Shown in pieces: positions 22,962-55,410 of a stretch of 64,000 nt of DNA. Positions within the stretch are counted from its first letter, which is position 1. Every line of letters begins with the position of its first letter. The stretch is from contig CAZCCR010000004.1 in NCBI GenBank assembly GCA_964497425.1, positions 6,345 through 70,344 of the forward strand, in the 5' to 3' direction. Source of the DNA: an uncultured Gaiellales bacterium. GTDB lineage: Bacteria > Actinomycetota > Thermoleophilia > BMS3ABIN01. The notes under the pieces were generated by a model that was given only the letters and a program-made list of their open reading frames with translations, had not been told where the DNA came from and ran no database searches. Made by a program: the position numbers and the translations under genes.

Positions 22962-24053
22962 ATGACCTCCGGTCCCGGTCCTGAGACCATCCGCAAGCTG
23001 GTGGACCTGGGCAGCGTGACACCGGCAGAGACCGTCACGGCGGATTACGACGTTCACGGGGTCAGCACCCGTGTCGTCACCAACTCCCGCGCCATAGCGG
23101 CCGCCATCGAGCGTTTCCTCCAGCCATTCAAGGCGGAAGCGGCGGTGGCGGAGTCCTCCTCCGGCCCGGACATCAGCGTGCACCTCTTCGCTGTGGACGC
23201 ACTCTCCCCGGAGATGTCCCCTCGTGACGGCGACGCTGAAATGCTCTATAACTGGGGAACGCTCAAGGTATATCATGACGGGCCCCGCCGCTACGCAGAA
23301 GTGGATACACGCGCGAGGATGACGGCTGATGTGGATGCCTGCGCCGCCGCCGGGTTCACCCGCGAGGCGTTGCTGGAATCGGACTGGCTCATCACCAACC
23401 TCTTCTTTTATCCCCTCTGGGCGCAGATGCTCAAGGTGAAGGGGCTTTTCCCCCTCCATGCCGCCGGGCTCTGCCGCGGGGACCGCTCCGCTCTTTTCCT
23501 GGGCAGGAGCGGCAGCGGCAAATCCACCCTTTCCATCAGCCTGGTCAAGGGCGGTTACGGCATACTAAGCGACGACACCGTCTTCCTCAGGGAAAAAGGC
23601 GGCAGACTCGAAGCGCTCGCCTTTCCCGAAGAGATCAACGTCCGTGAGGAGACCATCAGGTTATTGCCGGATCTTTCCCGGGTAAGGAATTTCAACATGA
23701 ACGAGCTCAGACAGAAATCATCCTTCTCCATCGAGGAGCTTTATCCCGGCAGCATCGCCGAATCGTCGCAGCCGGTGGTAATGGCTTTCACGCAAGTTGC
23801 CGACAGTGAGACAACGACCGCCGAGCCCATGTCGGGCACGGAGGCCCTGTCCCAGTCCCTGCGCTACGGGTTCTTCTTCCTTGACCCATCGACGAACGAG
23901 CGACATTTTTATATCATGTCCATGTTGGCGCGGCAGGCGCGATGCTTCCGCCTCCGTACCGGCAGAGACCAGGACGGGCTGGTGCGAGTGGTAGATGGGC
24001 TGCTGGCCGAAGCCGGACAAGGCGATGTATCATCTGAAGAGGGGAAAGGATAA
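22962..24053 (+). CDS. HPr-kinase-related P-loop serine kinase (lasso-peptide-associated type)
   Basis: GRSGSGKSTLS P-loop inside an HprK C-terminal-like fold. First gene of an operon with PqqD and B2 proteins. Confidence 0.7.
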   Translation: MTSGPGPETIRKLVDLGSVTPAETVTADYDVHGVSTRVVTNSRAIAAAIERFLQPFKAEAAVAESSSGPDISVHLFAVDALSPEMSPRDGDAEMLYNWGTLKVYHDGPRRYAEVDTRARMTADVDACAAAGFTREALLESDWLITNLFFYPLWAQMLKVKGLFPLHAAGLCRGDRSALFLGRSGSGKSTLSISLVKGGYGILSDDTVFLREKGGRLEALAFPEEINVREETIRLLPDLSRVRNFNMNELRQKSSFSIEELYPGSIAESSQPVVMAFTQVADSETTTAEPMSGTEALSQSLRYGFFFLDPSTNERHFYIMSMLARQARCFRLRTGRDQDGLVRVVDGLLAEAGQGDVSSEEGKG

Positions 24054-24364
24054 TGGAAACAACGCATTACCTGATCAAGAACGACGAAGTCCTGTTCACC
24101 TCCATGGGTGAAGACGCTGTGCTGCTCCATGTCAACCGGGGCGACTATTACAGCCTCAACAAGGTGGGAGCGCGCCTCTGGATCCTCAGCGACGGCAGCA
24201 GGAGCATCTCCGACCTTGCCTCACTGATCACGGAGGAGTTCGAGATAACCAAGGAGGAGGCGGAAAAAGATATCCTGGAGCTGGCGGAGCAGCTCGTGAG
24301 CGAGGGGCTGGTGAAAGTTGCCGAAACTCCTGAGGACGATAAATCGGCTGAAGGATCCGCGTGA
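24053..24364 (+). CDS. PqqD-family protein (RiPP recognition element / lasso B1-like)
   Basis: 103 aa. DAVLLHVNRGDYYSLNKVGARLWILSDGSRSISDLASLITEEF is a typical PqqD/RRE fold. The ATG overlaps the upstream stop (TAATG). Confidence 0.8.
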   Translation: METTHYLIKNDEVLFTSMGEDAVLLHVNRGDYYSLNKVGARLWILSDGSRSISDLASLITEEFEITKEEAEKDILELAEQLVSEGLVKVAETPEDDKSAEGSA

Positions 24365-24866
24365 CCTCTGGCTCTTCCTGCGCATCCTGGCGATGCTCAT
24401 CCGCCTCCCCAGCCTCATTGAAAAGGAAAGTCTCCCCGACCTGCTGAACCGGCTCGACCCGGGGGTGTCGCCGGGACCCCGCGACCGGGAGATGCTGGAC
24501 AAGACCGCCGGTTTCGTGGACTCCCTCCTCAAGTACCGCTTTTTCCAGCGCTATGGCAGATGCCTGATGCGCTCCCTCACCCTATTCCACTTCCTGCGGC
24601 GGCAGGGCTGGCCGGTAGGCATCCGTTTCGGGGTGAGGAAGACCGGCGGCGAGACTGAGGATGCGGGCGGGGAGGGCAGCGGCGGCGCTGAAGCGTCCAG
24701 CCGGGAGAGAGGCGTCAGCGCAGACGTCCATCGTCCGAAAGCGGATACAGTGCCGGCCGCCGGCGCCGTCTCCATCACCGGCCACAGCTGGCTGGTGCTG
24801 GAGGGAGAACCGTTCCTGGAGAGGGAACCGATCGAAAGCTACGCCGTCACATTCTCCTACCCGTGA
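24318..24866 (+). CDS. lasso-peptide B2-type transglutaminase-like cysteine protease
   Basis: Catalytic Cys in YGRCLMRSLTLFHFLRRQGWPVGIRFGV and His in ITGHSWLVLEGEPFLE, the classic B2 arrangement. TTG start overlaps the end of the PqqD gene. Confidence 0.7.
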   Translation: MPKLLRTINRLKDPRDLWLFLRILAMLIRLPSLIEKESLPDLLNRLDPGVSPGPRDREMLDKTAGFVDSLLKYRFFQRYGRCLMRSLTLFHFLRRQGWPVGIRFGVRKTGGETEDAGGEGSGGAEASSRERGVSADVHRPKADTVPAAGAVSITGHSWLVLEGEPFLEREPIESYAVTFSYP

Positions 24867-24879
24867 GGCCATCCGGCAT

Positions 24880-26772
24880 TTGAGCATCTTGAACGATAAC
24901 CGATACCCAGGATTTCTTGCAGTTGCCTTCACCGGAGGCGCAACAGGGCTGATGTCCGGCTACGTCTTCCTGCAGTCTGACATATCAGGCAACGCCCTGA
25001 TGATGGTCGTCTTCTGTGTGACCGGTGCATTATTGCTGGGTCTGGCATGGGCCGCCGTCTCGAAGGGTGTCTCCATCGCAACGGACACAGACCCGGCTTC
25101 AGTGCGCCACCGCGCCCTCTGGCCTTTCCTTACCTTCATCATCCTGCCGTTGCTCTATCTCCCGTATTTCTATTACCGTAATCACGGAAAGCAGTACATC
25201 CCCGGGATATCGCCTCTCGACCCGTCCTGGCAGATGTTGTTCGTCCTCCTGCTCTCCGCCGGCCTGGTGTTCGCGTTCCTGGCATACAGGTTCCCTTTCC
25301 TCAGGCGCGGCCCCATCGATGCGGCAACCAGGAGACCGGCCATCTCGTTGGCGATAATGATTACCATCTGGTCGATAGCCGTCGTCATCCTGAACCTGCT
25401 GCAGGTCAATTACCTCAACCAGCCCGGCAACAACTCAGCCATCTTCTCCGATATGCTGGATAACGCCTTCTCCGACAGGGGCCTGCTATTCAGTGAACTG
25501 GCGCAGGCGGAAGGCTCCAGTATATTGGGCGTTCACGCGCAACTGATCTGGTTTATCGTCTATCCCTTTTACCTCATCTGGCCCAGCTATCAGTGGCTGC
25601 TGATATTGTCCGATGTCGCTCTCGCGCTTGCGGCAGTGCCACTGTACCTTTTGTCGCGCCGTTTCTTCAATCCCGGCGTCAGTCTGCTCATTGCGGCTGT
25701 TTTCCTTTTCAACCGGATCATCCTGGCGCAGCCCGCGGTCGGCGACCTGTCCGAAGAACGCTTCCTGCCCATGTTGCTGCTGTCGGCCTTCTACTTCTGG
25801 CAGACGAAGAAATACAAGCGCTATCTGCTGTTCACCTTCTTGATGCTGCTGGTGCGGGAAGACACCGGGCTCGTGCTTGTCATGTTCGGCCTTGTCTCCG
25901 CCCTCAACCGCCGGAGCCTGAAGTGGACCATGGTCCCGATCATCGCAGGCCTGAGCTGGGTGGGGACGATGATGCTCTGGCTGATACCTCACATGAACCC
26001 CACCGGCAGCGCCACCAAACCGGTTGTCCTGTACAGCTCTCTCGGCGAGAACAGCCGTGAGATCCTGAAGACCATCATCTTCAAGCCGTGGGTCGTCATC
26101 AGGACAGCTTTCTCCTCCGTCAGCCGGTTCGGCGTGATGTACGGTCTATGGCAATCCTTCGCTTTCGGGGCCCCCCTGATTTCGGCATCGGTGCTGATAG
26201 CCCTGCCGGCGACAGCCGAGAGCTTCCTGGCCTCCACCCCGATCGGCCTGAACCACTTCAACATGCTGGCGCCTGCCGCCGCCCTCTTCCCTTCGCTGGT
26301 CCTGGGGATGGACCGGGCCGAGAGGATAGCGAGGAACAGATGGAACATCCCGATCTCGACAGGACTGGCGGTCATCACCCTGTTTGCGACACTGGCACTG
26401 TCATATACTTGGTTCAGCCCTGGATACTACAAGCCCAGTCAGAATTACGAAGCCGCCGTGAGCATGATTGAAATGATCCCATCCGACGCTTCCGTGATGA
26501 TGCCGAAATACATGATGGTCAAGGCTCAGGGCTCACAAAGGGTGAAAGGCTATTACCAGGCCGAATATGAATACGCGCAAAAGGGAGATATCAACCTGGT
26601 ACAGGATTACATAATCATCGACAGCTCGGAAGTACCGGAATCCTGGAAAAGCGATGTCCAGGAGTTCCGCGGCAGGGAAAGGGTCATCGACTCATTGGAC
26701 TCCTCCCCTGACTATATACTGGTCTTTTCAGAAGACAACCTGAAGATGTTTCAACGAACGGAAACCCGATAA
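24880..26772 (+). CDS. large polytopic membrane protein, GT-C-like (DUF2079-like), with a C-terminal extracytoplasmic domain
   Basis: ~12 predicted TM helices then a ~130 aa soluble tail. Start uncertain (TTG 24880 or ATG 24952). The ORF-track N-terminus overlapping the B2 gene is discarded. Confidence 0.55.
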   Translation: MSILNDNRYPGFLAVAFTGGATGLMSGYVFLQSDISGNALMMVVFCVTGALLLGLAWAAVSKGVSIATDTDPASVRHRALWPFLTFIILPLLYLPYFYYRNHGKQYIPGISPLDPSWQMLFVLLLSAGLVFAFLAYRFPFLRRGPIDAATRRPAISLAIMITIWSIAVVILNLLQVNYLNQPGNNSAIFSDMLDNAFSDRGLLFSELAQAEGSSILGVHAQLIWFIVYPFYLIWPSYQWLLILSDVALALAAVPLYLLSRRFFNPGVSLLIAAVFLFNRIILAQPAVGDLSEERFLPMLLLSAFYFWQTKKYKRYLLFTFLMLLVREDTGLVLVMFGLVSALNRRSLKWTMVPIIAGLSWVGTMMLWLIPHMNPTGSATKPVVLYSSLGENSREILKTIIFKPWVVIRTAFSSVSRFGVMYGLWQSFAFGAPLISASVLIALPATAESFLASTPIGLNHFNMLAPAAALFPSLVLGMDRAERIARNRWNIPISTGLAVITLFATLALSYTWFSPGYYKPSQNYEAAVSMIEMIPSDASVMMPKYMMVKAQGSQRVKGYYQAEYEYAQKGDINLVQDYIIIDSSEVPESWKSDVQEFRGRERVIDSLDSSPDYILVFSEDNLKMFQRTETR

Positions 26773-26775: not shown

Positions 26776-27987
26776 ATGGATCATCACATACATGAGAAGG
26801 AGCTGCTGCTTGCGAGCGCTTCCTACCCGCTGAGAACGTCTGATACGCCTGATATCTCAGAACTGGTCAGACAGCCGCTTGACTGGGAATACATCACCCT
26901 TTCTTCCGGACGCCATGGTCTGGCTTCCCTGCTGTTCAGGATGCTGTCAGAGCATGAGTCCGCCGACCTCGTGCCTGCCGAAGTGATGGAAAGACTGAAG
27001 AAAGGCTATCTCGCCACCCTGATGAGAAACCGTCTTTTTTATCATGTGATCGAACCTCTGCTCTCTTCATTCGCGGAGAACTCTGTGCCGGTTATCCTCC
27101 TGAAGGGGGCCGCGCTATGCATGACCATCTACGACGACATCGCCCTGAGACCGCTTGGCGATATGGACATCATGGTCCATCGTGAACATGTCACCCTCTG
27201 CCGTGAGCTGATGGAGGATGCCGGCTTCCATCTTATAGAGAACAACTATTTCCCCATCCCGGATGATAGAAATGACGAGCTCGGTTGCGAGTGGTCATAT
27301 CATATCCAGAACAATGTGGTGGAGCTGCATTGGGACCTGGTAACCAGGCTGGCTCCGTTCCAGGTGGAGATATCACGTTTTTGGGCGGATGCGGTCGATG
27401 TCGAACCGAAAGGCGGACCAGCACTGATAATGGAGCCCGGGAACCAGCTTCTGCATCTGTGCCTGCACCAGTTCAAACATCACTGGATGCATTTCAGGGA
27501 CCTGGTGGACGTGGCGCTGTTGCTCGAGAAATACGGAGACATCATCGACTGGGACAGGTTCACACGTGACGCGCAGGAGCAGGGTCTGGGCCGATGCGCC
27601 TACTACACCATCAAACTGACGAACCAAACCTTGGGCACACCGGTCGGATATATACCCCTTGCAGGGATACTGGGCCGCCCAAAGCCCAATATCCTGGCAG
27701 ACAGCATGAAAGACCTCATCGCCAGCAACATACTGGAAAGTCATATGCCCAGACGCTTCTGGGAACTGTTGCTGGTCGATGGCGCCGCCAACAAGACCAC
27801 CGTGATAAGAAACACCCTTGCCCATCCGTTCCCACGCAAGTTGACCCGGGGGCAGTTACCGCAGGATTCCAGACAGGGCGTCATCCACAGAACCCGGGCA
27901 GCCATAAGATCGGTGTTCTTCTACCGCAGGTTGTTCATCGAGTTCCCGCGCCATATATGGCGAATCATCAGGAAGCGGGCGAGCTGA
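26776..27987 (+). CDS. nucleotidyltransferase family protein of the type found in lasso-peptide/HprK clusters
   Basis: Polymerase-beta-like NTase core (PLGDMDIMV, ELHWDL). Last gene of the plus-strand operon. Confidence 0.65.
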   Translation: MDHHIHEKELLLASASYPLRTSDTPDISELVRQPLDWEYITLSSGRHGLASLLFRMLSEHESADLVPAEVMERLKKGYLATLMRNRLFYHVIEPLLSSFAENSVPVILLKGAALCMTIYDDIALRPLGDMDIMVHREHVTLCRELMEDAGFHLIENNYFPIPDDRNDELGCEWSYHIQNNVVELHWDLVTRLAPFQVEISRFWADAVDVEPKGGPALIMEPGNQLLHLCLHQFKHHWMHFRDLVDVALLLEKYGDIIDWDRFTRDAQEQGLGRCAYYTIKLTNQTLGTPVGYIPLAGILGRPKPNILADSMKDLIASNILESHMPRRFWELLLVDGAANKTTVIRNTLAHPFPRKLTRGQLPQDSRQGVIHRTRAAIRSVFFYRRLFIEFPRHIWRIIRKRAS

Positions 27988-27999: not shown

Positions 28000-29751
28000 T
28001 CAGGCGGACGGGACTTTGGGGAAGTAATACTGTTGACCATCCGCGTCGTCAGCCCGCTGGTGAATGACCGTCGAGAACGATGTCAGATCCGGCGGGACAT
28101 GATACATGACATCGAAGTCCACGTGCCCACCTGAGGCGACAGGACCCAGGTCTGTGACAGTCGGTGTCGCCTCAACCCCGGAGCTTGCGGATACAGACAG
28201 GATGCTGGTGCTGACGGCATCGCCGATACCCACGTTCGTCGTCCTGAAACGGACTTTGAGGTCGCCGTTCAGATAGTCCGCGTAGCTTGGCCATTCCGAG
28301 TTCACCAGACTGACGATCAGATAAACACCGTCCATGCTTGTCGTGGTGAACGATCCGCTGCTGGCCGCCTCGCCCGAACCATCGGAGGATATCACCTCGT
28401 ACTGGTAAGTCGTAGCCGGCATGAGATTGGTCAGCATGATCCGGTGCTCCGGTGACCATGCCGTCTCCACGGCCTCGGCGGGCTGGGACCCATCGGCCCA
28501 GTACCGGACTCTGGCATCCGTCGCAAGATTGGTCGACCATTCCAGGGCGGCGGTCGTCGGTTCGATATCGGTGACGGCGACGTTCCCGGAAACCTGGGGC
28601 ACCGGGGCTGTGGTCTGGGGGACAAGCTCGATCCAGAACGTATCACTCCAACGGGTACCCTGTGTGACGAGCTTGTGCCTCTCGGACGGCGGCGGGGACC
28701 CTCCCCACCAGGCTGTGTAACGAACCGTATGCCCGTTTGCCTGTTGTGAATAGCTCGAGAACTCGACGTTCTCTGCGGATGTGTCGCCGAACATGCTTTG
28801 GCCGAGCGCGAACAACCCCCCGCCTTCGAAACCGTTGCCGTTGTTATCCATCTTGATCCTTACGGAAGAACCGTTCCCCGGTTTTGTCAGGTTGAAATGC
28901 TCCGAATGCCTGATCTGATAATCATGGTCATGGCCGGTGTCGAGGCCCGTGATCAGCATCGTCTCGTTATTCGGATTCTCTATCCCATTGGAACCCGCGC
29001 CTCCACATCGCCATTCCCCGCCATGCCTCACTGCTTCGGCCTCCTGCCAGCCATACTGCCGGCTGAAGGAGAAGTCGTAGGCAGGTTCCGCCGCGAAGAA
29101 GGAGCGCAGGAACTCCATGCTTATCTCCAGATGGATCTGCCCGCCTGGATAGACGGTCCATCTCTTGTCGACGCGGTAGTCGTCCGGGTTGGCGTCCTGA
29201 AGGTCGAAGTCGTTGTCTTTGACTATGAAGCTTGCTTCAAAAACGGCATTGCCGTCGCTGTCGATGTAATGGTTCCTCGACAGAAGCCGGGCCCATCTCC
29301 CTACATCGGATGTTGCCGGCGCATTGGGGTCCAGAGACCATACATGCGTTGCCCCCAGGCCCCCGATACCCGGCATGTTGGGACTGGTGCTCCCGCCACC
29401 GCCATCGACCACCGCGACGATATTCCTCTCAAGTCCCGGGTCCGTTCTCTTGTCGTAGAGCTCGTAGATGCTGCCTCCGCCCCGGTTGGAGTATTCGCTG
29501 GCGAGCGTCCTGTAATGCCAGACCACTCTGACGACGTCGTTGTCCAAAGTCAGTTTACCCTGGACCGGGTCGTCGGTGAATGTGAATGTGGACACGGTTG
29601 CCGATGTGGACAGGTCGATCGCCTGACCGGCGTACATGTCATCCGTGCCCGGTACAAGAAACATCATTGACACCAGTATGCCAATGACAAAAGTCGCTGC
29701 TATGAGGATTTTCAACACCGTACTCGCTCCTCGGCAGCCGGGCCGTCTCAT
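28000..29751 (-). CDS. signal-anchored secreted protein with a C-terminal fibronectin-III-like domain (possible glycan-processing enzyme)
   Basis: ATG at 29749-29751 (MRRPGCRGASTVLKILIAATFVIGILVSMMFLV signal anchor). FN3 signature near the C-terminus. No confident catalytic family. Confidence 0.55.
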   Translation of the reverse strand: MRRPGCRGASTVLKILIAATFVIGILVSMMFLVPGTDDMYAGQAIDLSTSATVSTFTFTDDPVQGKLTLDNDVVRVVWHYRTLASEYSNRGGGSIYELYDKRTDPGLERNIVAVVDGGGGSTSPNMPGIGGLGATHVWSLDPNAPATSDVGRWARLLSRNHYIDSDGNAVFEASFIVKDNDFDLQDANPDDYRVDKRWTVYPGGQIHLEISMEFLRSFFAAEPAYDFSFSRQYGWQEAEAVRHGGEWRCGGAGSNGIENPNNETMLITGLDTGHDHDYQIRHSEHFNLTKPGNGSSVRIKMDNNGNGFEGGGLFALGQSMFGDTSAENVEFSSYSQQANGHTVRYTAWWGGSPPPSERHKLVTQGTRWSDTFWIELVPQTTAPVPQVSGNVAVTDIEPTTAALEWSTNLATDARVRYWADGSQPAEAVETAWSPEHRIMLTNLMPATTYQYEVISSDGSGEAASSGSFTTTSMDGVYLIVSLVNSEWPSYADYLNGDLKVRFRTTNVGIGDAVSTSILSVSASSGVEATPTVTDLGPVASGGHVDFDVMYHVPPDLTSFSTVIHQRADDADGQQYYFPKVPSA

Positions 29752-30008
29752 TGAGACCCCTGGCTTTGCGTCCCCGCCTTGCGGCGGGTTTGCCTTTTCG
29801 GAAGCTAGTGCGAGTGGTAAACCAGTGTTGCTCCCTCCCCCATCAAGCACACATCCCTCTCGTGTGCACCGCCTCGGTTTAGCCTTCAATTAATTTTTCG
29901 GCAGTAGTACTCCCATGTTTAGCCTGTCCGTTTGCGAAGGGGCGACCAATGGGATTGCGGCTTCCTGCCGCCCAGCGTCCCTGTCGTTGATGGTCCAATT
30001 GCAGCCTC

Positions 30009-31055
30009 ATGCCCCTACAGCTATACTGGATTCAGGACAGCATCTCCCCTTCTTTTCCTGGATTCGTGAAAACAAGGAAGTTGACAGACTACACCAGCCT
30101 CCAGCAGCTGGCCTCACGCCAGTTCGTGATGCTGCGCGGTTTGAACCCCAGGAAGATGGCCAATGCGGCCGGCATCTATTACGAGTACCGCAGAAAGAAG
30201 GTCGTGCTCAAACATAAACCTCTGCTGCTGAAGATCGAACCATCCAATCACTGCAACCTGCGGTGCCCCACCTGCCATCCGGACGGCAATACTTCCGGCG
30301 GCACGATGGACGAGGAGACATTCCGCACTATTCTTGAGAAAGCTCCCATGGACTACTTCCTCAAGAGCACGCTCTACATGTTCGGGGAACCGTTGCTCAA
30401 CAAGCGCATATACAGCATGATCTCGCAGGTATCCAGATACGGCATACCCACTTCCATCAGTACCAATTTCCATGTCTTCGACGAGAAACGCGCCGAGGAG
30501 ATGCTTGCCTCGGGCCTCACCTGGATACTTGTCTGTATCGACGGCGCCAGCCAGGAGACCTACGAGATATACCGCGTCGGCGGTGACCTTGAGAAGGTGA
30601 AGGAGAATATCAGGATACTGGTGGCCGAGAAACAGCGTCAGGGCTCCAAATATCCTGTCATCGAGGTGCAGTCGGTCATCTTCGACCACAACCGTCACGA
30701 GATGGACGAGATAGAGCGTATGGTCCTCTCCCTCGGCGCAGACCGTTTCACCACCAAGGAAGACGTCTTCACCCAGCTCGACTATGGCGATAAAGAGCTT
30801 GTCCCCGAAGAAGGGAAACCGAAGAAGGGCCGCTCGTGCTTCTTCCTCTATGGAACGTTCATGGTGGATTACGACGGCGTGGTCCTGCCCTGTTGCCTCG
30901 GCCGCTCCAGATTCGGCGATCTCAAAGAGTCCTCATTCGAGGAGATCTGGAATAACGAGAAGTTCACAGCGGCGCGACGCTGGTTCTCCAGCGGTTTCAC
31001 CGACAGGGACGACGATCTGGACCTGCCGTGCTATAACTGTCCCCTCTTCATGTAA
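30009..31055 (+). CDS. radical SAM enzyme with a SPASM/twitch C-terminal domain
   Basis: LKIEPSNHCNLRCPTC radical-SAM motif. C-terminal VLPCCLGR...DLPCYNCPLF auxiliary-cluster cysteines. GC3 suggests translation begins nearer 30066 (GTG) than 30009. Confidence 0.75.
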   Translation: MPLQLYWIQDSISPSFPGFVKTRKLTDYTSLQQLASRQFVMLRGLNPRKMANAAGIYYEYRRKKVVLKHKPLLLKIEPSNHCNLRCPTCHPDGNTSGGTMDEETFRTILEKAPMDYFLKSTLYMFGEPLLNKRIYSMISQVSRYGIPTSISTNFHVFDEKRAEEMLASGLTWILVCIDGASQETYEIYRVGGDLEKVKENIRILVAEKQRQGSKYPVIEVQSVIFDHNRHEMDEIERMVLSLGADRFTTKEDVFTQLDYGDKELVPEEGKPKKGRSCFFLYGTFMVDYDGVVLPCCLGRSRFGDLKESSFEEIWNNEKFTAARRWFSSGFTDRDDDLDLPCYNCPLFM

Positions 31056-31097: not shown

Positions 31098-32825
31098 CTA
31101 CAGATAGCCCAGGTCCTTCAACCGCTGCTCAATGACTTCCGAATCCTCCTCGGAATAGACGTCCTCCTGCTCGGCTTCACCGGCTGTCTCGACACCGTAT
31201 CTGGGCTTGTTGGCCTCAAGGTGTTCCCTTTTGAATATCCGCTCAAGGACCCTGCCGTCGAAGTCTCCGGGGATCTCCTCCCCGAAGTGGTAGAGGACCG
31301 TCGGCGCGACATCGACTATACCGGCGCCTTCCAGCCTCTTGCCCTGCCTTATCGCCGGTCCGGTGGCGATGAATATGCCGTTCAGCTGGTGTCCGCCGGT
31401 GGGATTTCCCAGGGGCCAGTCCCAATCGACAGGTTCCACCGACTCGGACGAACTCCTCGTCCTTATACCGTTGATAACCGCATCGGTGCGCCAGCGGACA
31501 CTGATATCAGCGGCCTTTTCAACCTGTCGGCCCTGGTAGGCATCCTCTCTGCGGAAGACCTCGTCGACGATGGGTTTCCCCGTTGCCGCGTCCCTGGCGT
31601 CCGCCAGTTCAGAACATATGCTTTCACAAAGACCGTCATACTCGGATTGAGGGACGATACCCATGGGGTCACGCCCGGCCAGGTTTATCCAGATATCATC
31701 CATGGCTCCATCACAGAAGGCCTTGGTCCGTCGCCAGTCGATCCCGCCCAGTTTCATCGCCGACTCTACAGCGCCGAGCATGCCAGGGAAACGGCGCGCC
31801 AGTTTCAACTTGGTCGTCGAGGAAAGATACCTGTTGGCCAGTCGGTAACCGGCCCCTCCCACGGCGCCGAACGCGCGCCTGGCGACCTTGCGCGGGTCTG
31901 ACCATGACTGACCTTCCATCCTCATCAGGCCCAGATCGGTGAGCCAATCCCCCAGCAGCTGGGCGCCGCGAGGATTCACCGCTCCACCATGGTCAGATAC
32001 TATCATCACCGTAGCGTCAGGGTTCCTCTCGAGCAGACGCCCGATGATGTCATCCATCCGCTGGTAGACCTTGAGGATGGTGTCGCCGTAGCGTTCCGCT
32101 TCGGCCGGATCATAGGCTGGATGGGATGGGTCGAAGAACTTCCAGTAGAAATGGTGAACGTTGTCGGTCTCGCCGAAGACCACCGTGAAAAGGTCCCAGT
32201 CATATCTGTCCATCAGATAGGAAGTGTGACGATAGCGGATCTCCATACTGTCGAGAAGGCGCTCTGCACCCTCCTTCCAGCGGCCCTCCGACCTGAGCAC
32301 ATGGGTGAGATTGGCGGTGATGCGATACTCACCGTTCTCGGCTATCATCTCCTCGAGCAGGTTCCGGGGATGACACACCTTTTCGCTGTCAACGCCCGGT
32401 GCATCCAGCCCGGCGATCATGCACCCGTTTATCTCCTGTACCGGATAGCTCATGGGCACGTTCACCACGCATCCCGTCCTCTCACCACAGAGGATCTCCC
32501 AGAATGTCCGGGCGCACCGGTGGGCCCCGTTTACGTATCCAAAACCGTAACTGTCGAAATGCCGCTCGGTAAAGCCGAATATGCCATGCTTGCCGGGATT
32601 CTTGCCGGTGCTGAACGATGTCCAGGCCGGCGGGCTGCTCATGGTGGGAACTGAGCGCAAAGGCCCGTACACGCCCCCCTCCATCAGCTTGCCGACGGTC
32701 GGGAGCTTGCCCTCACCGACCCATTTTTCCAGCAGGTCGGGGCTGGTGCCGTCAAACCCCAGTATCAACAACCTGTTTCTCCTACCGTTCTCCAAGCCAC
32801 ACTCCAGGAACTTCCATTCGGTCAC
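31098..32825 (-). CDS. alkaline-phosphatase-superfamily type I phosphodiesterase / nucleotide pyrophosphatase-like enzyme (paralog 1)
   Basis: LILGFDGTSPD metal site, TMSSPPAWTSFSTGKNPGKHGIFGF nucleophile region. Acidic C-terminal tail ending RLKDLGYL. Confidence 0.75.
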   Translation of the reverse strand: MTEWKFLECGLENGRRNRLLILGFDGTSPDLLEKWVGEGKLPTVGKLMEGGVYGPLRSVPTMSSPPAWTSFSTGKNPGKHGIFGFTERHFDSYGFGYVNGAHRCARTFWEILCGERTGCVVNVPMSYPVQEINGCMIAGLDAPGVDSEKVCHPRNLLEEMIAENGEYRITANLTHVLRSEGRWKEGAERLLDSMEIRYRHTSYLMDRYDWDLFTVVFGETDNVHHFYWKFFDPSHPAYDPAEAERYGDTILKVYQRMDDIIGRLLERNPDATVMIVSDHGGAVNPRGAQLLGDWLTDLGLMRMEGQSWSDPRKVARRAFGAVGGAGYRLANRYLSSTTKLKLARRFPGMLGAVESAMKLGGIDWRRTKAFCDGAMDDIWINLAGRDPMGIVPQSEYDGLCESICSELADARDAATGKPIVDEVFRREDAYQGRQVEKAADISVRWRTDAVINGIRTRSSSESVEPVDWDWPLGNPTGGHQLNGIFIATGPAIRQGKRLEGAGIVDVAPTVLYHFGEEIPGDFDGRVLERIFKREHLEANKPRYGVETAGEAEQEDVYSEEDSEVIEQRLKDLGYL

Positions 32826-32932: not shown

Positions 32933-34051
32933 TCAACCGCTCCGCTGCCTTTTCCGCCCATATCGGCGGCAAAGCCCCTCATACAGGTCCGTGACACGTT
33001 CCCAGCTGTATTCCTTCCTCACCCTCTCACGGGCTCTCTCCCCGAGCTCCCTGGCCCTTTCCGGCGATGCTATCAGCGCCTTGATCTTTTCGCGCAGGTC
33101 CGCCGCCCCCTTCTTCCCGGAGAAGCTGACACCCGCGTCCCCGATACTCTCCAGGTTGGGCGGATGGTCGTTCACGACCACGCACGCGCCTGCAGCCATG
33201 GCGTCGAGGATCACCGGATGAGTGCCACCGACTTCCGTGGGTATGGCGAAGATGAAGCAATGGAAGCTCAACTCCCTGAAGGCGCCACCGAACTGGTATC
33301 CGGTGAAAATCACCCGCTCGTCGTCGGTCGACTTGAGCCGGTCTATGTATTCTTCAGCGTAAGGTGCATCACCGACGATGACCAGTTTCATGTCCGTCTC
33401 CAGTTCGCTGAAGGCCTCTATCAGGACATGGGCGCAGTTCTCCGGGACCAGGCGTCCTACGAAGAGGATGTACTTTCCCGGTTCAAGCCCGAACCGCTCC
33501 AGGGTCGCGGTGCCTGCGTCCTCGACGACATCCGACCCGTAGGGGATGAAGTCACTGTCCTGGCCGAACCGCTCCAGGTAATAATCCTGTATCACACGGG
33601 AATCGGATATGGTGCGCGTAGCCGCTTTCGGCGCGAACCATTCAGCGAAGCGTATGTACTTCTTCGCCAGCCGGTTCCATTTCTTGCGATGGGAATCAAG
33701 GCCGTCCACGTTGATCAACGACGGTATACCGAACACTCGCGAGAGCAGGGCGAAGGGACTGTTGCCAGCGATGAAGTACAGGGCCACGTCGGCGCGATCG
33801 AACAGGCCCATATGCACCGTGCTGATGAAAGTGTGCACGAAAGTATCAAGGAACTTGTTCCTCACCGTCGGCAGCCTCTTCAGGCGTACGCCCTCGTAAT
33901 GATCACCCTCGTAATCCATCATGTGCGGCCGGCAATAGACAGTCACTTCATGGCCCCTCTGCGCAAGCCTGATGCTGATGGCCTCGACGGCCGTCTCGAA
34001 ACCGCTGTAGCGCCCGGGGATGCCTCTTGTGCCCAGCATGGATATCTTCAA
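32933..34051 (-). CDS. glycosyltransferase family 4 (GT-B)
   Basis: GT4 N-terminal domain and C-terminal EX7E-type region (FAIPTEVGGTHPVILDAMAAG). TTG start at 34049-34051 forms a TTGA overlap with the upstream stop. Confidence 0.8.
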   Translation of the reverse strand: MKISMLGTRGIPGRYSGFETAVEAISIRLAQRGHEVTVYCRPHMMDYEGDHYEGVRLKRLPTVRNKFLDTFVHTFISTVHMGLFDRADVALYFIAGNSPFALLSRVFGIPSLINVDGLDSHRKKWNRLAKKYIRFAEWFAPKAATRTISDSRVIQDYYLERFGQDSDFIPYGSDVVEDAGTATLERFGLEPGKYILFVGRLVPENCAHVLIEAFSELETDMKLVIVGDAPYAEEYIDRLKSTDDERVIFTGYQFGGAFRELSFHCFIFAIPTEVGGTHPVILDAMAAGACVVVNDHPPNLESIGDAGVSFSGKKGAADLREKIKALIASPERARELGERARERVRKEYSWERVTDLYEGLCRRYGRKRQRSG

Positions 34052-35181
34052 CTGGCGCCCGCCTCTCTCAATACGTCCTCGTATACCGCAAGTGTCCTGC
34101 GGGCGCATTCGCGCCAGCTGAAACAGCGCGCCCTCTCGAGGCCCGCCCTGCTGAATGCGGCGTTGACGGCAGGCTCCAGCAACAGGGATGCGGTCGCGGC
34201 GGCGATGCCGTCCACGTCGAAGGGGTCGACCTTGACGCCCGCGTCCCCCACCACCTCAGGCAGTGAGGCCCGGTCCGAGACCACCACCGGCGTACCACAG
34301 GCCATCGCCTCCAGCGGAGGCAACCCGAACCCTTCATATATCGACGGATAGACGAAAACATCCGCGCCGGAGTAGAGCGCGGGCAGGTCCTCGTCCGGGA
34401 CATAACCCGTCAGCACGATATCGTCAGACCAGCGTGACTCTTCGATAAGTGACAGGACGGGGTCGTGGCGCCAGGCTTTCTTGCCTACCAGGACTAGGCG
34501 ATGCCTGATATCCGGCCTGACCGACCTCATGCGTGAATAGGCCCTGATCAGCCGGGGGATGTTCTTCCGCGGCTGGAGATTCCCCACGGCCAGTACATAA
34601 GGCCCGCCGACCCCGTACCGGGACCTCACCGACTCCAGGCGGTCCCTGTCTTCAACAGGGGCGAAATCATCGCCGGCAGCGAGGTATGTCACCGTCACTT
34701 TCTCTTCCGGCAGCCCGTATATCTCCACCAGATCCCGTTTGGAGTGCTCGGAAATGGTCAGGACCCTGGCGGCCAGCCTGGCCGAAAGAGGGAAGGTGGC
34801 CCTGAACTGCAACCGTTCCCTGGCGGAGAAGAACCGGGGATAAGTCTCGAATGATATGTCATGTATCACCGTGACCAGCGGAGCAGTCATCACCGGTGGT
34901 CCCACATACTGGACGTGGAGAAGGTCAAGACCCAGCTTCCAGACCAGCCATGGCGTGACAAAAGGTATTCGCACCAGAGGGTTGGCAGGCAAAGCCATCA
35001 CCGGGCGTGCCTCGGGGAACCTGCCGCCCGCTTCCTCCGCGGCCCGCTCGTCCGTGAACAGCAGCGTGAAACGATGGCCACTGTCAAGTCCGATGAGTCC
35101 GTCTATGAGATTGGTGACATAGGTCTCGTTGCCGGTAAGGCGCCCCCCTATCGCATGAGCATCGATACCGATCTCAGCCAT
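34048..35181 (-). CDS. glycosyltransferase family 4 (GT-B)
   Basis: YPSIYEGFGLPPLEAMACGTPVV EX7E motif. Confidence 0.85.
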   Translation of the reverse strand: MAEIGIDAHAIGGRLTGNETYVTNLIDGLIGLDSGHRFTLLFTDERAAEEAGGRFPEARPVMALPANPLVRIPFVTPWLVWKLGLDLLHVQYVGPPVMTAPLVTVIHDISFETYPRFFSARERLQFRATFPLSARLAARVLTISEHSKRDLVEIYGLPEEKVTVTYLAAGDDFAPVEDRDRLESVRSRYGVGGPYVLAVGNLQPRKNIPRLIRAYSRMRSVRPDIRHRLVLVGKKAWRHDPVLSLIEESRWSDDIVLTGYVPDEDLPALYSGADVFVYPSIYEGFGLPPLEAMACGTPVVVSDRASLPEVVGDAGVKVDPFDVDGIAAATASLLLEPAVNAAFSRAGLERARCFSWRECARRTLAVYEDVLREAGAS

Positions 35182-36631
35182 TTACGGCAACCCGACTTCC
35201 GTTTTGTTCCTCATCGGCCTCTGAGAGCGTCGCTTTGGATAAAGCCACGAGGATGCCGAGATAGATCCAGGGAAAGCCCAGCCAGAAGAAGGATGATGCC
35301 TGTGACGCCACTATCATCACGATGGCCCCCAACGCCATCCCGTAGAGGTTCGCCTTGCGTATCGAGCTGCGGGCTTTCCCCGCCGCCCTGAATGCATAGA
35401 CGATCGGGACGACGTGGATCCAGAGCATGAGGAACGCTCCCACGAGCCCGGTGTCGTGGAGGCTCTGGATCATGGAGCTGAAAAGCCATCCACGATTGGA
35501 GAAATTCTTCTCTCCGATGGACAGGAGCCCGTTTCCCAGGAAGGGGTGACTGCGCCATTCCTCTATCCCCTGGGTCTGGACATCGGTCCGGCCCGCCGCC
35601 GAACTGCTTTGAAAGTTCAACAGGTTCTGCACCCTGCCCAGAAAAGCATTATTCGTTCCTGAAGATTCCGAGAAGACATAATTCACCAGCGGGAAGGAAA
35701 CGGCGAAGATCATGAGCATGGCCAGGATGAATGCTATCGACCTGGGATTTATCACGTTTCTCACCGGCCTCGAGTAGAAAGGCAGATAAACCATCACTAT
35801 TATCACGCCGACCCAGGCGGCGCGCGTCAGTGATGTCATCGTAGCTATGAACAGGAGTATCAGTCCGAGCCAGAGAAACCTCTCACTGGCAATCTTTTCC
35901 TTGCCGTAAGTCACCAGATGAGTGGTGAACAGTATCAGCATGATCGCAACATAGGCGCCCAGGAGGTTCGCTTCCTGGAACAGGCCGCTGGTCGACGGGA
36001 GCTTCAATGTTATCAGGTGGGAAAAGGATATACCGCCTATGTTTATCCCGAGGAAATGCGAGATGAAGGCGGTCAGGGAGTAGAGCGCGTGAATCGCAGC
36101 CATGAGCATCATGAGCTTCACCGTCAGATCCAGCCGTGATCTGTGCTCCAACAGCACATAGACCGTATAGAAGTACATGCTCATGTAGACTATCTGCAGG
36201 AACAGTCCCTGATAGCTGTAAGACGGATCCGGTGAAAACAGGTATGAGGAGACAAAGGCCGTGACAATGAGACCGATGATAGGGATATCGAGAACAGTGG
36301 CCGAGATCCTTGCTTTCCCGCTCAGGAAATAAGTCAGCCAGACAAGGGCGACGATGACCAGGATAACCTGTTCCGGCCTGAATGTGAAAGGGCCCAGGTC
36401 ATAACGGAAGATATTCAGCTGCGCAGCGATCAACAGCAGTATCAGGCCTCGCCAGGGATTGGTGGCGATCGCTGCAACTGCAACGAAAGCGAGAAGCAGC
36501 AACGGGATGACCGGATCGACCATGATCAGGCCGGCGGTGATCAAGCCCGCCGTGACCGCCAAAGCCAGTCCCGATACCACCAGCCAGCGGGCGGCAGGGT
36601 CTAACCTGTACTTTTCCACCAGCTGGTTCAT
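35174..36631 (-). CDS. O-antigen ligase / Wzy-like polysaccharide polymerase membrane protein
   Basis: ~11 TM helices with a Wzy_C-like periplasmic loop. Confidence 0.7.
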   Translation of the reverse strand: MNQLVEKYRLDPAARWLVVSGLALAVTAGLITAGLIMVDPVIPLLLLAFVAVAAIATNPWRGLILLLIAAQLNIFRYDLGPFTFRPEQVILVIVALVWLTYFLSGKARISATVLDIPIIGLIVTAFVSSYLFSPDPSYSYQGLFLQIVYMSMYFYTVYVLLEHRSRLDLTVKLMMLMAAIHALYSLTAFISHFLGINIGGISFSHLITLKLPSTSGLFQEANLLGAYVAIMLILFTTHLVTYGKEKIASERFLWLGLILLFIATMTSLTRAAWVGVIIVMVYLPFYSRPVRNVINPRSIAFILAMLMIFAVSFPLVNYVFSESSGTNNAFLGRVQNLLNFQSSSAAGRTDVQTQGIEEWRSHPFLGNGLLSIGEKNFSNRGWLFSSMIQSLHDTGLVGAFLMLWIHVVPIVYAFRAAGKARSSIRKANLYGMALGAIVMIVASQASSFFWLGFPWIYLGILVALSKATLSEADEEQNGSRVAVNG

Positions 36632-37701
36632 GTTGCCCGTTCTTTTTCAGCTTTGTCACCGGCCGGCCGCGCGCGGCATTTCTCTTCCAGCCTGGAACTG
36701 TATTCCATCGCATACCCGGGGCCGTGCAGACCCAGCCTGAGGGATGTCACCGCATACAAGCGCATGTCTTCATTGCGTGCAACCTCATCATCCATCATGT
36801 GACCGGTGAGAGGTATCAGTCTCGCCAGTGTGACGAGGAGATATCTGATGAAATACGCCATCGACATCAGCAGCCCGAAGATATTGAATCTGGGGAAGCC
36901 CAACTGCCCTGCGGCGACGCGGAACAGGCCGCCCATCCAGAGAAGCCGTGCTTCCGGACTGCCGGTACTGCTGGCTCCCCCGTAATGGACCACCCTTATC
37001 CACGGCAACAGGTGCAGCTTCCATCCGGCCTGACGCATCCTCACCCCGTATTCGACGTCTTCCGCATACATGAAATGCTCATCGTCCAACATGCCCACTT
37101 CGTCAATAACACTACGCCTTGTCACCATGCAGGCGCCGCCTATCCAGTCTACCGGCATCGGTTTCCGCGTACTCCGCGAACGCACGAACATGCCCCTTGA
37201 GCGTCCTCCCAACACCGCCTGCAACCCGGATAACTGGCTGAAGGCGGATGCTGGTGAAGGCGCATAGCCGCCGCTGTATTGCAGATGGCCGGAGCGTCCC
37301 ACCAGTTGTGGTCCGACCGCGGCTACTCCGGGGGAATTCTCCAGATACCGCACGAAGTGGGCCAGGGAGCCCGGCGGCGTCATGATATCCGAATTCACCA
37401 GGGCGATATACTCACCCGAGCTCTCGCGGATACCCTGATTGGTCGCCGCTGCGAAGCCGGTGTTCTCATCATTCTCGATGACCCTGGCCCCGGGGAACTC
37501 CTCACGCACCATCCGCGCGCTGCCATCACTCGAACCGTTATCAATGACGATCGTCTCAAATGCCAAACCTTCCGCGGCAGCCGGGATCCTCTCCAGGCAT
37601 TCTCTTAATATCTCGCGGGTATTCCAGCTTACTATGATCACAGAGAGGCCGATACCTGAGGATGGAGTCTCTGCGGCTAGAGGGCCATTCATTTCCGACA
37701 A
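36628..37701 (-). CDS. glycosyltransferase family 2
   Basis: VIIVSWNTRE...DNGSSDGS...ENDENTGFAAATNQG, with a DxD in ALVNSDI. Confidence 0.85.
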   Translation of the reverse strand: MSEMNGPLAAETPSSGIGLSVIIVSWNTREILRECLERIPAAAEGLAFETIVIDNGSSDGSARMVREEFPGARVIENDENTGFAAATNQGIRESSGEYIALVNSDIMTPPGSLAHFVRYLENSPGVAAVGPQLVGRSGHLQYSGGYAPSPASAFSQLSGLQAVLGGRSRGMFVRSRSTRKPMPVDWIGGACMVTRRSVIDEVGMLDDEHFMYAEDVEYGVRMRQAGWKLHLLPWIRVVHYGGASSTGSPEARLLWMGGLFRVAAGQLGFPRFNIFGLLMSMAYFIRYLLVTLARLIPLTGHMMDDEVARNEDMRLYAVTSLRLGLHGPGYAMEYSSRLEEKCRARPAGDKAEKERAT

Positions 37702-37739
37702 ACCATTCCGTACACGGTCCCGGCCGCACCTGCTTTGAC

Positions 37740-38498: not shown

Positions 38499-38665
38499 CG
38501 CGCCACCCTTTCTCTACATCCTGTTGACAGATAACCCGGACAGACAACCCGCCTGCCCGATCCCTTTGAAAGAACTTGTCTCTGCGTTACCCGTCTGTTC
38601 TCTTTCGGAACATTCACGGTTTTCCTTCATATTCATCATGCATTTTTTATTATACCTCTTGTCGT

Positions 38666-40015: not shown

Positions 40016-40025
40016 CCCGCTCGGA

Positions 40026-41291: not shown

Positions 41292-41463
41292 GACTACGCG
41301 ATTTCCGTTGCGATTGTTTTTGATCGCTACCTACCGCCTGTTTCACTCGGTGCGAAAGAACACACCTGAGCCCACTGATACAAGAAACCTTTTATCTGGA
41401 ACACTACATCAACATGGGTACATCGATATGATTTTACCAGCAATGGAGTTTGATTGGATAACC

Positions 41464-43176: not shown

Positions 43177-43195
43177 GTTCCTTTCATTTGCACCA

Positions 43196-44752: not shown

Positions 44753-44788
44753 TTACCACTCCGCTATGTCCTCTTGACCACAACACCT

Positions 44789-44812
44789 AAAAAGAAGCCC
44801 TGACCAGGGCTT
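44789..44812 (-). terminator. rho-independent terminator downstream of the initiating sugar transferase
   Basis: AAGCCCT-loop-AGGGCTT stem followed by CTTTTT on the minus strand. Confidence 0.55.
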
Positions 44813-44893
44813 TCCCAATCGCGCCTGTACCTGATTGTTTTCCCTCCCGGCCGAATAATCCTCTTGCCGCCAAGGCCGACAGCAGGCCCTTTC

Positions 44894-55383: not shown

Positions 55384-55410
55384 TCAGCCTCCTTAAAGCT
55401 GCTTTTTATC

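Follow-up and report, generated by a model that had tools for sequence, protein, structure and literature searches.

A putative Twitch-type radical-SAM tailoring enzyme in a cell-surface glycan locus of an uncultured actinobacterial lineage

Within the 64,000-nucleotide stretch of DNA analysed here (the window), one gene encodes a radical-SAM enzyme, denoted rSAM-A, that is probably a cytoplasmic Twitch-type enzyme. As judged with moderate confidence from sequence and gene order, it has an accessory, tailoring role in the cell-surface glycan locus next to it. We infer a carbohydrate substrate, and the particular chemistry is proposed by analogy with BtrN and HygY (see below).

Gene model and radical-SAM core

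The gene, its cluster-binding motifs and its upstream region comprise the following features.

30066–31055 (stop codon included), plus strand: rSAM-A, radical-SAM/Twitch enzyme gene, 329 aa, Pfam PF04055 and PF13186
30252–30275, plus strand: radical-SAM [4Fe–4S] cluster motif CX3CX2C (C63, C67, C70), from alignment
30837–31040, plus strand: predicted Twitch-type auxiliary-cluster domain, C258-X12-G-X4-C276(C277) ... C322-X2-C325, from alignment and phmmer comparison with 4m7t
29999–30027, plus strand: candidate rSAM-A promoter read from the sequence, with a −35-like TTGCAG (29999–30004), a 17-nt spacer and a −10 box TATACT (30022–30027)
29729–29803, minus strand: predicted c-di-GMP-I-GGC riboswitch aptamer (RF03167) within the 5′ leader of the gene for the secreted FN3 protein
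28000–29718, minus strand: secreted or membrane-anchored FN3-domain protein, 572 aa, start GTG 29718, with fn3 and Pur_ac_phosph_N matches

rSAM-A is a genuine radical-SAM enzyme. PF04055 is matched at 58.7 bits (gathering score 29.5), and the CX3CX2C motif is invariant in all 17 aligned homologues. In the AF2 model the core elements alternate between beta and alpha, preceded by about 45 N-terminal residues that form helices only. No PqqD/RRE domain was found by NCBIfam, by Pfam or in the AF2 model, in agreement with the original prediction that the enzyme has no fused RRE.

The coding start is GTG 30066, and neither ATG 30009 nor position 29890, from which the feature had originally been drawn. 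This is evident from the start codons of the relatives, which align exactly at this position (TTG in L001, ATG in L002, TTG in L007; L numbers denote related loci), and from the collapse of similarity further upstream, where L001 shows a deletion of about 57 nt. The orthologue N-termini read MK(K/N/T)RK(L/I)TDY. GC3 increases from 0.58 over 30009–30065 to 0.77–0.80 from 30066 onward, which matches the rise noted earlier around 30060. The publicly annotated gene (348 aa, starting at ATG) is consequently too long by 19 codons.

A divergent intergenic region of 347 bp (29719–30065) separates rSAM-A from the FN3 gene. The putative −10 box precedes the rSAM-A start by about 38 nt and is kept as TATACT, TATTGT or TATAAT in L001, L002 and L007; a consensus promoter scan missed it because of the weak −35 element. 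ATG 30009 falls within the promoter spacer. Transcription of rSAM-A presumably starts from a promoter of its own and yields a short 5′ UTR. The long untranslated or low-GC3 leader described previously is attributed to the mis-called start codon together with the riboswitch of the other strand. Comparison of four loci revealed no conserved small ORF in 29719–30120, so that the earlier rejection of an upstream peptide ORF stands. A consensus scan found no terminator between rSAM-A and the convergent PF01663 gene.

A predicted c-di-GMP riboswitch on the opposite strand

The RF03167 match, the GGC variant of the c-di-GMP-I riboswitch, is full-length (1–80) and scores 76.4 bits (gathering score 59; E 2e-16). 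It ends 10 nt before the FN3 start codon, and the SD sequence GAGGAG of that gene (29732–29727) overlaps the 3′ end of the aptamer. Judged by its score above the gathering threshold and its position in the 5′ leader, it is a predicted riboswitch of the divergent secreted-protein gene, on the strand opposite to rSAM-A and not regulating the latter. It is conserved upstream of the orthologous FN3 gene in L001, L002, L003 and L127 (65–70 bits). The start at GTG 29718 follows from the position of the riboswitch and SD sequence and from the length of the relatives (560–575 aa); a minus-strand ORF start at 29889 was rejected as spurious. A riboswitch before a secreted-protein gene in an exopolysaccharide-type locus, as found here, is a typical c-di-GMP regulon setting.

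The C-terminal Fe–S domain

A full SPASM domain is recognised by seven cysteines (CX9-15GX4C – gap – CX2CX5CX3C – gap – C), whereas a Twitch domain carries four. The latter is a truncated SPASM domain with one [4Fe–4S] cluster, and its definition as well as the BtrN mechanism are described in PMC9012708. In rSAM-A, C258, C276, C322 and C325 are invariant across the wide family (17 homologues), and only four residues separate C325 from the C-terminus. The second SPASM half, CX5CX3C, is absent from the sequence, so no second auxiliary cluster is expected. On this cysteine layout the domain is a Twitch domain with a single predicted auxiliary cluster, and not a full SPASM domain. The Pfam 'SPASM' model PF13186 still matches (51 bits), as it covers the part common to both domains. 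The original assignment as an rSAM/SPASM enzyme is therefore retained for the radical-SAM core and the C-terminal Fe–S domain, with a four-cysteine Twitch replacing the SPASM label. In a phmmer comparison with 4m7t, C258 and C276 align with the first two auxiliary-cluster ligands of BtrN, and the CX2C pairs match with a register slip of three residues. C157 and C277 are additional cysteines, invariant and specific to the orthologue group.

Relatives by sequence and fold

BtrN, the 2-deoxy-scyllo-inosamine dehydrogenase of the butirosin pathway (PDB 4M7T), and BlsE are the best solved relatives by sequence, BtrN matching over both domains (E 5e-12). The best fold matches are BlsE (PDB 7VOB, E 1.6e-11), BtrN, SuiB and DesII (PDB 8HZY, E 3.7e-10), at a TM of about 0.5. 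Three of these four act on sugars or cyclitols. However, SuiB, CteB and SkfB reach fold scores nearly equal to those of BtrN and BlsE, likewise at a TM of about 0.5, which counts against a sugar-specific reading; the fold search with the predicted model does not separate sugar-acting from peptide-acting relatives.

BtrN resembles rSAM-A in its radical-SAM core followed by a C-terminal Twitch domain, in four cysteines laid out C...GX4C...CX2C, in having no RRE, and in its carbohydrate-pathway context. It differs in sequence (about 19% identity), lacks the helical N-terminal extension of about 50 residues as well as the extra C157 and C277, and is encoded in an aminoglycoside cluster instead of a cell-envelope glycan locus. 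HygY, a related Twitch sugar epimerase, enters the comparison through a citation in PMC10991966. BlsE (cytosylglucuronate decarboxylase) and DesII are sugar-acting radical-SAM enzymes as well, but with a TM of only about 0.5 and an rSAM_BlsE score of 40 bits (cut-off 400) their chemistry is not transferable. The SPASM maturases (PqqE, anSME, SuiB, sactisynthases) share the superfamily branch and the Pfam SPASM match, whereas rSAM-A is without the second SPASM half (CX2CX5CX3C...C), a fused RRE and a precursor peptide, and scores far below the family cut-offs.

The subfamily profile search proposed with the original prediction assigned no curated NCBIfam family at cut-off, neither to rSAM-A nor to six wider-family members, and membership in anSME or PqqE was not recovered. 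The best 25 matches of rSAM-A, among which anSME does not occur, all stay below 30% of their cut-offs (e.g., PQQ_syn_pqqE, 46 bits with a cut-off of 381). Lipid rSAMs of the GDGT-MAS/Tes and HpnH types showed distant similarity. By sequence, the orthologue group is discrete: its members share 52–85% identity, the next relatives drop from 52% straight to 39%, and clustering at 50% identity yields one representative (582 bits) ahead of the next at 336 bits. The wider family comprises about 1,900 clusters at E ≤ 1e-30.

Glycan-locus context of the orthologues

Downstream, rSAM-A faces the glycan-assembly genes.

31098–32825, minus strand: AP-superfamily (PF01663 phosphodiesterase-type) protein, convergent with rSAM-A, Pfam 99.1 bits, sequence ...PTMSSPPAWTSFSTG..., no formylglycine motif
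32933–46450, minus strand: ORFs of the remaining glycan-assembly locus, namely GT4/DUF1972, GT4, Wzy-like, GT2, Wzz-like, Wzy-like, two more PF01663, flippase-like and initiating sugar transferase-like

In the second segment, profile scanning covered the GT4/DUF1972 gene (32933–34108); for the remaining genes we assign roles from their translations and from the Pfam labels that their syntenic counterparts carry in L007 and L123.

Nine orthologue contexts, the window included, have readable flanks, and every one of them is a glycan locus (some being of one lineage). Several orthologues share an operon with a flippase, GT4, SDR or methyltransferase gene. In L004 the orthologue is followed by a flippase, a B12-rSAM, GT2s, GT4s and methyltransferases. 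A metagenome scan added two contigs, L088 and L089, and a 1.2-kb fragment, L090. In L088, of the same lineage as L004, the orthologue overlaps the flippase gene by 4 bp, and in L089 it ends 8 nt before a GT4 gene. The L005 orthologue lies 6 nt before an SDR gene, surrounded by GT2/GT4 genes and a carbamoyltransferase–SxtJ–DUF5989 set; that of L006 directly follows the same set and rml genes and adjoins a flippase gene. In L007 and L123 a methyltransferase, an acetyltransferase, PF01663, GT4s, Wzy, GT2 and Wzz follow. The B12-rSAM, SDR and carbamoyltransferase partners of these orthologue loci are absent from the window.

The wider family (30–34% identity, mostly Bacteroidota) occurs in housekeeping and not in glycan contexts, and glycan specificity therefore does not hold for the family overall. 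Neighbour clustering of 87 wider-family loci found no neighbour common to more than 13 loci; with Bacteroidota members beside housekeeping genes, the clustering is silent on function.

The HprK–PqqD–B2 module

Upstream of the FN3 gene lies a five-gene operon.

22962–24053, plus strand: HprK-like P-loop kinase, first gene of the HprK–PqqD–B2–DUF2079–NTP_transf_5 operon, NCBIfam HprK_rel_A 50.6 bits (cut-off 200)
24053–24364, plus strand: stand-alone PqqD/RRE protein, PF05402 65.9 bits, lasso_PqqD_Bac 61.4 bits (cut-off 80)
24318–24866, plus strand: Lasso-B2-like transglutaminase-fold protein, PF13471 45.2 bits, NF033537 33.5 bits (cut-off 33)
24661–26772, plus strand: DUF2079 polytopic membrane protein, PF09852 165 bits, start uncertain and probably near 24970–25000 (relatives 565–639 aa)
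26776–27987, plus strand: NTP_transf_5 nucleotidyltransferase, PF14907 187.8 bits

The geometry given in the original prediction is accurate: the PqqD gene ends 5.7 kb upstream of rSAM-A (about 6 kb had been stated), and a single minus-strand FN3 gene, convergent with the operon, stands between operon and enzyme. The functional link drawn from it is unsupported. The HprK–PqqD–B2–DUF2079 module is conserved among related loci, and the co-location of its PqqD, HprK and B2 genes with rSAM-A is confined to a single close clade (the window, L001, L002 and L007). Profile HMMs found none of the three within 10 kb of the L005 and L006 orthologues (full 10-kb upstream flank) or near 80 wider-family loci. 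This absence is informative for one orthologue subclade, L005 and L006, as the L004, L088 and L089 contigs break just upstream. Conversely, the module occurs without rSAM-A in the three sampled loci L125, L126 and L128, rSAM-A is present on 3 of 27 long module-bearing contigs, and the module is about 4–5 times more widespread. It should be noted, as a point against independence, that in the Thermoleophilia-type clade rSAM-A always lies downstream of the module; within the clade, NTP_transf_5, the FN3 protein and rSAM-A either occur or are missing as a set. By its distribution, rSAM-A is independent of the PqqD module, the HprK-like kinase is taken as context, and at this locus a nearby PqqD gene is no reason to annotate a RiPP pathway. 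Our literature search on the module, SynChlorMet and the GGC riboswitch variant returned nothing usable.

Alternative explanations

The gene order invites the reading of rSAM-A as a RiPP-type peptide maturase that uses the stand-alone PqqD in trans as recognition element, on a peptide that the HprK-like kinase and the B2-like protease would process as well. PqqD-family and HprK-like proteins are likewise encoded near the radical-SAM enzymes of the SynChlorMet cassette (ScmC HprK-like, ScmD PqqD-like, ScmE/F rSAM-SPASM), peptide substrates are known for Twitch enzymes, e.g., SkfB, and the co-location in four loci fits. However, the matches to the Scm proteins are weak (ScmC 17.6 bits with a cut-off of 125, ScmD 32.9/100, ScmE 43.9/400, ScmF 32.7/400), and a SynChlorMet cassette would have all four above their NCBIfam equivalog cut-offs. 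Small ORFs were enumerated in the HprK-to-DUF2079 span (eight loci) and upstream of the rSAM gene (four loci), and no independent one is conserved; those that are conserved are shadow ORFs, which lie either within known genes or on the strand opposite the riboswitch. A PqqE-like RiPP maturase with RRE is thus not recognised, given that a PqqD domain and a precursor were not found and that L005 and L006 have no PqqD nearby. A different rSAM/SPASM gene does occur about 5.5 kb downstream of the module in L125 and L126, but these enzymes are 19–26% identical to rSAM-A and also lie among GT genes, whereas L128 has no rSAM gene within 10 kb. Moreover, rSAM-A is transcribed separately, divergent from the secreted-protein gene and outside the module operon. 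Taken together, a peptide maturase appears quite unlikely. We consider it very unlikely that rSAM-A, in trans with the orphan HprK-like kinase, PqqD RRE and B2-like protease, represents a new pathway type for a radical-modified, possibly glycan-linked peptide or protein that includes the riboswitch-controlled secreted protein; in Thermoleophilia-type bacteria the module heads the glycan locus without a lasso cyclase or a recognisable precursor.

Action on a neighbouring protein, which had been suggested for the AP-superfamily neighbours and would be either anSME-like formylglycine formation on PF01663 or another radical modification on the FN3 protein, is highly improbable. A PF01663 gene is immediately convergent in the window, L001, L007 and L123, the FN3 gene adjoins rSAM-A divergently in the window, L001, L002, L003 and L007, and the top NCBIfam match, W_rSAM_matur (106 bits), is a metalloenzyme maturase family. 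That match stays far below its cut-off of 380 and covers the rSAM core only, and L004, L005, L006, L088 and L089 have neither PF01663 nor FN3 neighbours. The three PF01663 proteins of the window read SSPPAW, SSVAW and TPAAW at the nucleophile position and lack the formylglycine motif (C/S)xPxR. anSME has two auxiliary clusters, as compared with the one predicted for rSAM-A, and appears neither among the PDB sequence matches at E ≤ 0.001 nor among the top 50 fold matches. The anSME identity, which the original prediction had named as a potential refutation, is hence ruled out by family scores, cysteine count and the missing motif. Finally, rSAM-A might act on a small molecule or lipid other than a glycan, such as a cofactor or envelope lipid, its position in a glycan locus being incidental. 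Bacteroidota members at 30–34% identity lie beside dxs, pyrH, frr and a membrane protein gene without GT neighbours, and the distant similarity to lipid rSAMs points in the same direction. The uniform glycan context of the nine readable orthologue loci and the repeated operonic coupling described above argue against this reading, which we regard as unlikely.

Proposed mechanism and implications

For the preferred assignment as a glycan-tailoring Twitch enzyme, the following course is conceivable. The CX3CX2C cluster would reductively cleave SAM, and the resulting 5′-deoxyadenosyl radical would abstract a hydrogen from a sugar carbon of a nucleotide-sugar or lipid-linked glycan intermediate. 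The one auxiliary [4Fe–4S] cluster, ligated by Cys throughout, may then take up an electron from the substrate radical, so that an alcohol is converted to a ketone as in BtrN. Alternatively, the radical may regain a hydrogen from a conserved cysteine, giving an epimerisation of the HygY/NeoN kind, with C157 and C277 as candidate donors. A role of rSAM-A as BtrN/HygY-type sugar dehydrogenase or epimerase may be suggested from homology (E 5e-12, about 19% identity) and glycan context.

To our knowledge, radical-SAM enzymes within cell-surface polysaccharide loci are almost entirely uncharacterised. The rSAM-A subfamily is most likely an uncharacterised group of glycan- or sugar-tailoring Twitch enzymes. 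As a discrete clade without a curated NCBIfam match, it offers a well-delimited starting point in the search for new radical chemistry on sugars. The predicted riboswitch, in turn, suggests a connection between c-di-GMP signalling and part of the envelope locus in this uncultured, anaerobic lineage of actinobacteria.

Start, candidate promoter and upstream region of rSAM-A

The following features of the window bear on rSAM-A, the radical-SAM gene under study.

22962-26772 (+): module of HprK-like kinase, stand-alone PqqD/RRE, lasso-B2-like protein and DUF2079 membrane protein
28000-29718 (-): secreted FN3-domain protein, divergent neighbour of rSAM-A
29729-29803 (-): c-di-GMP-I-GGC riboswitch (Rfam, full-length; 76.4 bits versus a gathering score of 59, E 2e-16)
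30066-31055 (+): rSAM-A, 329 aa, GTG start (from start-codon alignment and GC3)
31098-32825 (-), 40026-41291 and 41464-43176 (-): AP-superfamily (PF01663) proteins

The public gene model of rSAM-A, annotated as 'MoaA/NifB/PqqE/SkfB family radical SAM enzyme', starts at ATG 30009 and comprises 348 aa. The N-termini of the orthologues, MK(K/N/T)RK(L/I)TDY, coincide with V20 of this model, and when the window DNA is aligned to that of four related loci, all start codons fall at position 30066 (GTG in the window, TTG in L001 and L007, ATG in L002 and L003). Upstream of 30066 the DNA similarity among the related loci collapses, with a deletion of ~57 nt in L001, and GC3 is 0.58 in 30009-30065 versus 0.72-0.80 in each 50-codon block from 30066. 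Because of the aligned starts, the upstream collapse and the GC3 step, rSAM-A is assigned 329 aa from 30066. A -10-like hexamer, TATACT (30022-30027), is kept in the relatives as TATACT, TATTGT or TATAAT; TTGCAG (29999-30004) precedes it by 17 nt, and ATG 30009 falls within the spacer. The position of the hexamer therefore suggests that the 5' UTR is probably short, about 30 nt. The long leader of the original prediction is lost with the GTG start, since the remaining sequence belongs to the opposite strand, while the rise in GC3 near 30060 is retained.

The real start of the secreted protein is GTG 29718, because the listed start, TTG 29889, would read through the riboswitch. The SD motif GAGGAG (29732-29727) ahead of this GTG overlaps the riboswitch 3' end. 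In the predicted fold, P1 is extended by ACUCGC/GCGAGU and CAACACUG/CGGUGUUG pairings that cover SD and start codon together, which suggests translational control of the secreted protein. The riboswitch also lies ahead of the orthologous gene in L001, L002, L003 and L127 (65-70 bits), and the L007 copy scores below the gathering score. A hairpin, GCACAC...GUGUGC (29840-29862, -), lies just upstream of the aptamer, is partly kept in L001, L002 and L007, and may belong to the leader or to promoter architecture. No small ORF is conserved in 29890-30065 and the sole 'conserved' one of the intergenic region is antisense to the riboswitch, in agreement with the predicted absence of a peptide ORF upstream of rSAM-A.

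Enzyme class of rSAM-A

rSAM-A matches PF04055 (58.7 bits) and PF13186, 'SPASM' (51 bits). Its nine cysteines are C63, C67 and C70 of the radical-SAM cluster, C157, C258, C276, C277, C322 and C325; the triad, C258, C276, C322 and C325 are invariant over 17 homologues with identities as low as 32%. The auxiliary cysteines follow the layout CX12GX4C...CX2C, with the C-terminus four residues later, and the SPASM motif lacks its second half (CX2CX5CX3C...C). As to the radical-SAM/SPASM enzyme first proposed, the radical-SAM core thus stands, whereas only this shorter layout represents SPASM.

In a phmmer search of the PDB the top match was BtrN (E 5e-12), aligned over both core and C-terminal domain: its first two auxiliary-cluster cysteines pair with C258 and C276, and the C-terminal CX2C pairs of the two proteins correspond with a 3-residue register slip. 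BlsE was second, and anSME was not retrieved. Profile comparison with the rSAM-SPASM subfamilies, an earlier suggestion, gave no NCBIfam assignment, as no curated family came near its cut-off. The highest match, tungsten-cofactor oxidoreductase maturase (106 bits versus 380), covers the rSAM core only, and PqqE (46/381), BlsE (40/400), ScmE (44/400) and ScmF (33/400) score far lower than required. In an AF2 model from 12 orthologues (pLDDT 79.5, pTM 0.79), about 45 N-terminal residues form a helical extension and a winged-helix RRE is absent, which bears out that no RRE is fused to the enzyme. Foldseek ranked BlsE, BtrN, SuiB, DesII, CteB, SkfB, MoaA and PqqE in this order among PDB entries, with TM ~0.5 throughout; the predicted model confirms the fold class, and the ranking does not separate sugar-acting from peptide-acting relatives.

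Gene neighbourhoods and alternative partners

Gene order around rSAM-A orthologues (identity to rSAM-A in brackets)
L001 (85%), L002/L003 (64%), L007 (66%): window order kept, i.e. hemW, HprK-like, PqqD, B2-like, DUF2079, NTP_transf_5, secreted protein (-), rSAM-A; then, contig permitting, PF01663, GT4/DUF1972, GT4, Wzy, GT2, Wzz
L004 (58%): rSAM-A, then flippase, B12-rSAM, GT2, methyltransferase, GT2, GT4
L088 (57%): layout of L004; rSAM-A overlaps the flippase gene by 4 bp
L089 (56%): GT4 gene begins 8 nt past rSAM-A
L005 (52%): SDR gene 6 nt downstream, GT2 and GT4 upstream, carbamoyltransferase-SxtJ-DUF5989 alongside
L006 (53%): carbamoyltransferase-SxtJ-DUF5989 and four dTDP-rhamnose genes, rSAM-A, then flippase, SDR, initiating transferase, B12-rSAM

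All readable orthologue contexts are glycan-assembly loci with rSAM-A among tailoring genes; they stem partly from shared lineages, as L005 and L006 form one subclade, and L004 and L088 one lineage because their proteins share a 90% cluster. The carbamoyltransferase-SxtJ-DUF5989 genes directly adjoin rSAM-A in L005 (12484-13675) and L006 (7535-9944) in differing orientations and are absent from the window; they are a possible functional partner in this subclade.

The conserved order in the closest relatives would be compatible with rSAM-A working in trans with the orphan HprK/PqqD/B2 module. Profile HMMs from the window and related sequences, run on all ORFs of 128 loci, detected HprK-like, PqqD and B2-like genes in no loci other than L001, L002, L007 and L125-L128, all of Thermoleophilia type. 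None occurs in the full 10-kb upstream flank of L005 and L006, or nearby in 80 wider-family loci. Module presence is not readable in L004, L088, L089 and L123, where four independent assemblies end 110-930 bp ahead of the orthologue; these breaks hint at a repeat or strain-variable junction at the gene-block edge. The HprK-like protein forms ~76 Thermoleophilia-type clusters (at least 45% identity) versus 17 for rSAM-A (at least 50%), and only three of the 27 HprK clusters with a longest contig of at least 30 kb could be matched by size to rSAM-A contigs (53,095, 106,191 and 31,207). Co-occurrence holds for L001, L002 and L007 and fails in L005 and L006. Across eight loci the module region contained no conserved small ORF that might encode a precursor peptide, and the module has no lasso cyclase. 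With no module within 10 kb of the L005 and L006 genes, and the module often occurring without rSAM-A, the earlier notion of a shared peptide is not supported, and joint action in trans appears improbable.

The module always directly follows the hrcA-dnaJ...hemW housekeeping block and borders a variable glycan locus; the site is fixed in all four contigs inspected (L125-L128, chosen as long contigs, one for close identity to the window HprK). Past the module, L125 and L126 carry methyltransferase, GT4 and GT2 genes and an rSAM/SPASM gene distinct from rSAM-A (19-26% identity). This second, unrelated subfamily (L125 16657-17862, L126 16887-17909) takes a similar position in the variable island and adjoins GT2/GT4 and PMT_2 or acyltransferase genes. 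In L128 no rSAM gene appears within 10 kb, and L127 ends too soon to show whether one follows. Members of the clade have either the whole block of NTP_transf_5, the riboswitch-controlled secreted protein and rSAM-A or none of it. The adjacency is therefore best explained if the conserved module borders a variable glycan island and rSAM-A is among the optional cargo genes of that island.

Action on the AP-superfamily neighbours, also considered originally, finds no support. The first (31098-32825) matches PF01663, and all three read as phosphodiesterase-type, with PTMSSPPAW, PTISSVAW and PPLTPAAW at the nucleophile position; the formylglycine motif (C/S)xPxR is absent from all three, and PF01663 genes are missing from the L004, L005, L006, L088 and L089 contexts. 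Two of them, 31098-32825 (-) and 41464-43176 (-), share an acidic C-terminal tail, ...EED.E.I/V..RL(K/Q)DLGYL, which the third (40026-41291) lacks.

Further along the window, two listed ORFs form a single gene (46640-50800, -) across an in-frame TGA (48268-48266, ...VDHCARL-TGA-HAPSVAGL...). Its product is probably a formate dehydrogenase with selenocysteine and with fused 2Fe-2S, 4Fe-4S and flavin oxidoreductase domains. The Wood-Ljungdahl genes MTHFR, CdhD and ACS/CODH come after this gene (54595-62743).

Family and proposed function

The orthologue-group profile retrieved 1,923 proteins at E<=1e-30 from 1.84 billion representatives; the group itself collapses to a single entry (582 bits), with the next match at 336 bits. 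In a word-indexed search, identity to rSAM-A drops from 52% to 39% without intermediates. A single orthologue was recovered from 185,579 GTDB species genomes (L008, the same contig as L004), the remaining matches being at most 38% identical and mostly from Bacteroidota. Curated NCBIfam families gave no match for rSAM-A or for six members sampled from the wider family.

rSAM-A is most likely a Twitch radical-SAM enzyme tailoring an envelope-glycan sugar; a glycan or sugar as substrate is moderately likely. By analogy, chemistry of the BtrN, HygY, BlsE or DesII kind would apply: a 5'-deoxyadenosyl radical would abstract hydrogen from the substrate, after which the auxiliary cluster would mediate oxidation, or a Cys thiol epimerisation. 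C157 and C277, further cysteines invariant among the orthologues, are speculative candidates for H-donors.

In summary, the analysis corrects the public gene model of rSAM-A, removes a tempting RiPP reading as unsupported, and identifies the protein as a new and so far uncharacterised member of an established enzyme kind, the Twitch radical-SAM enzymes.
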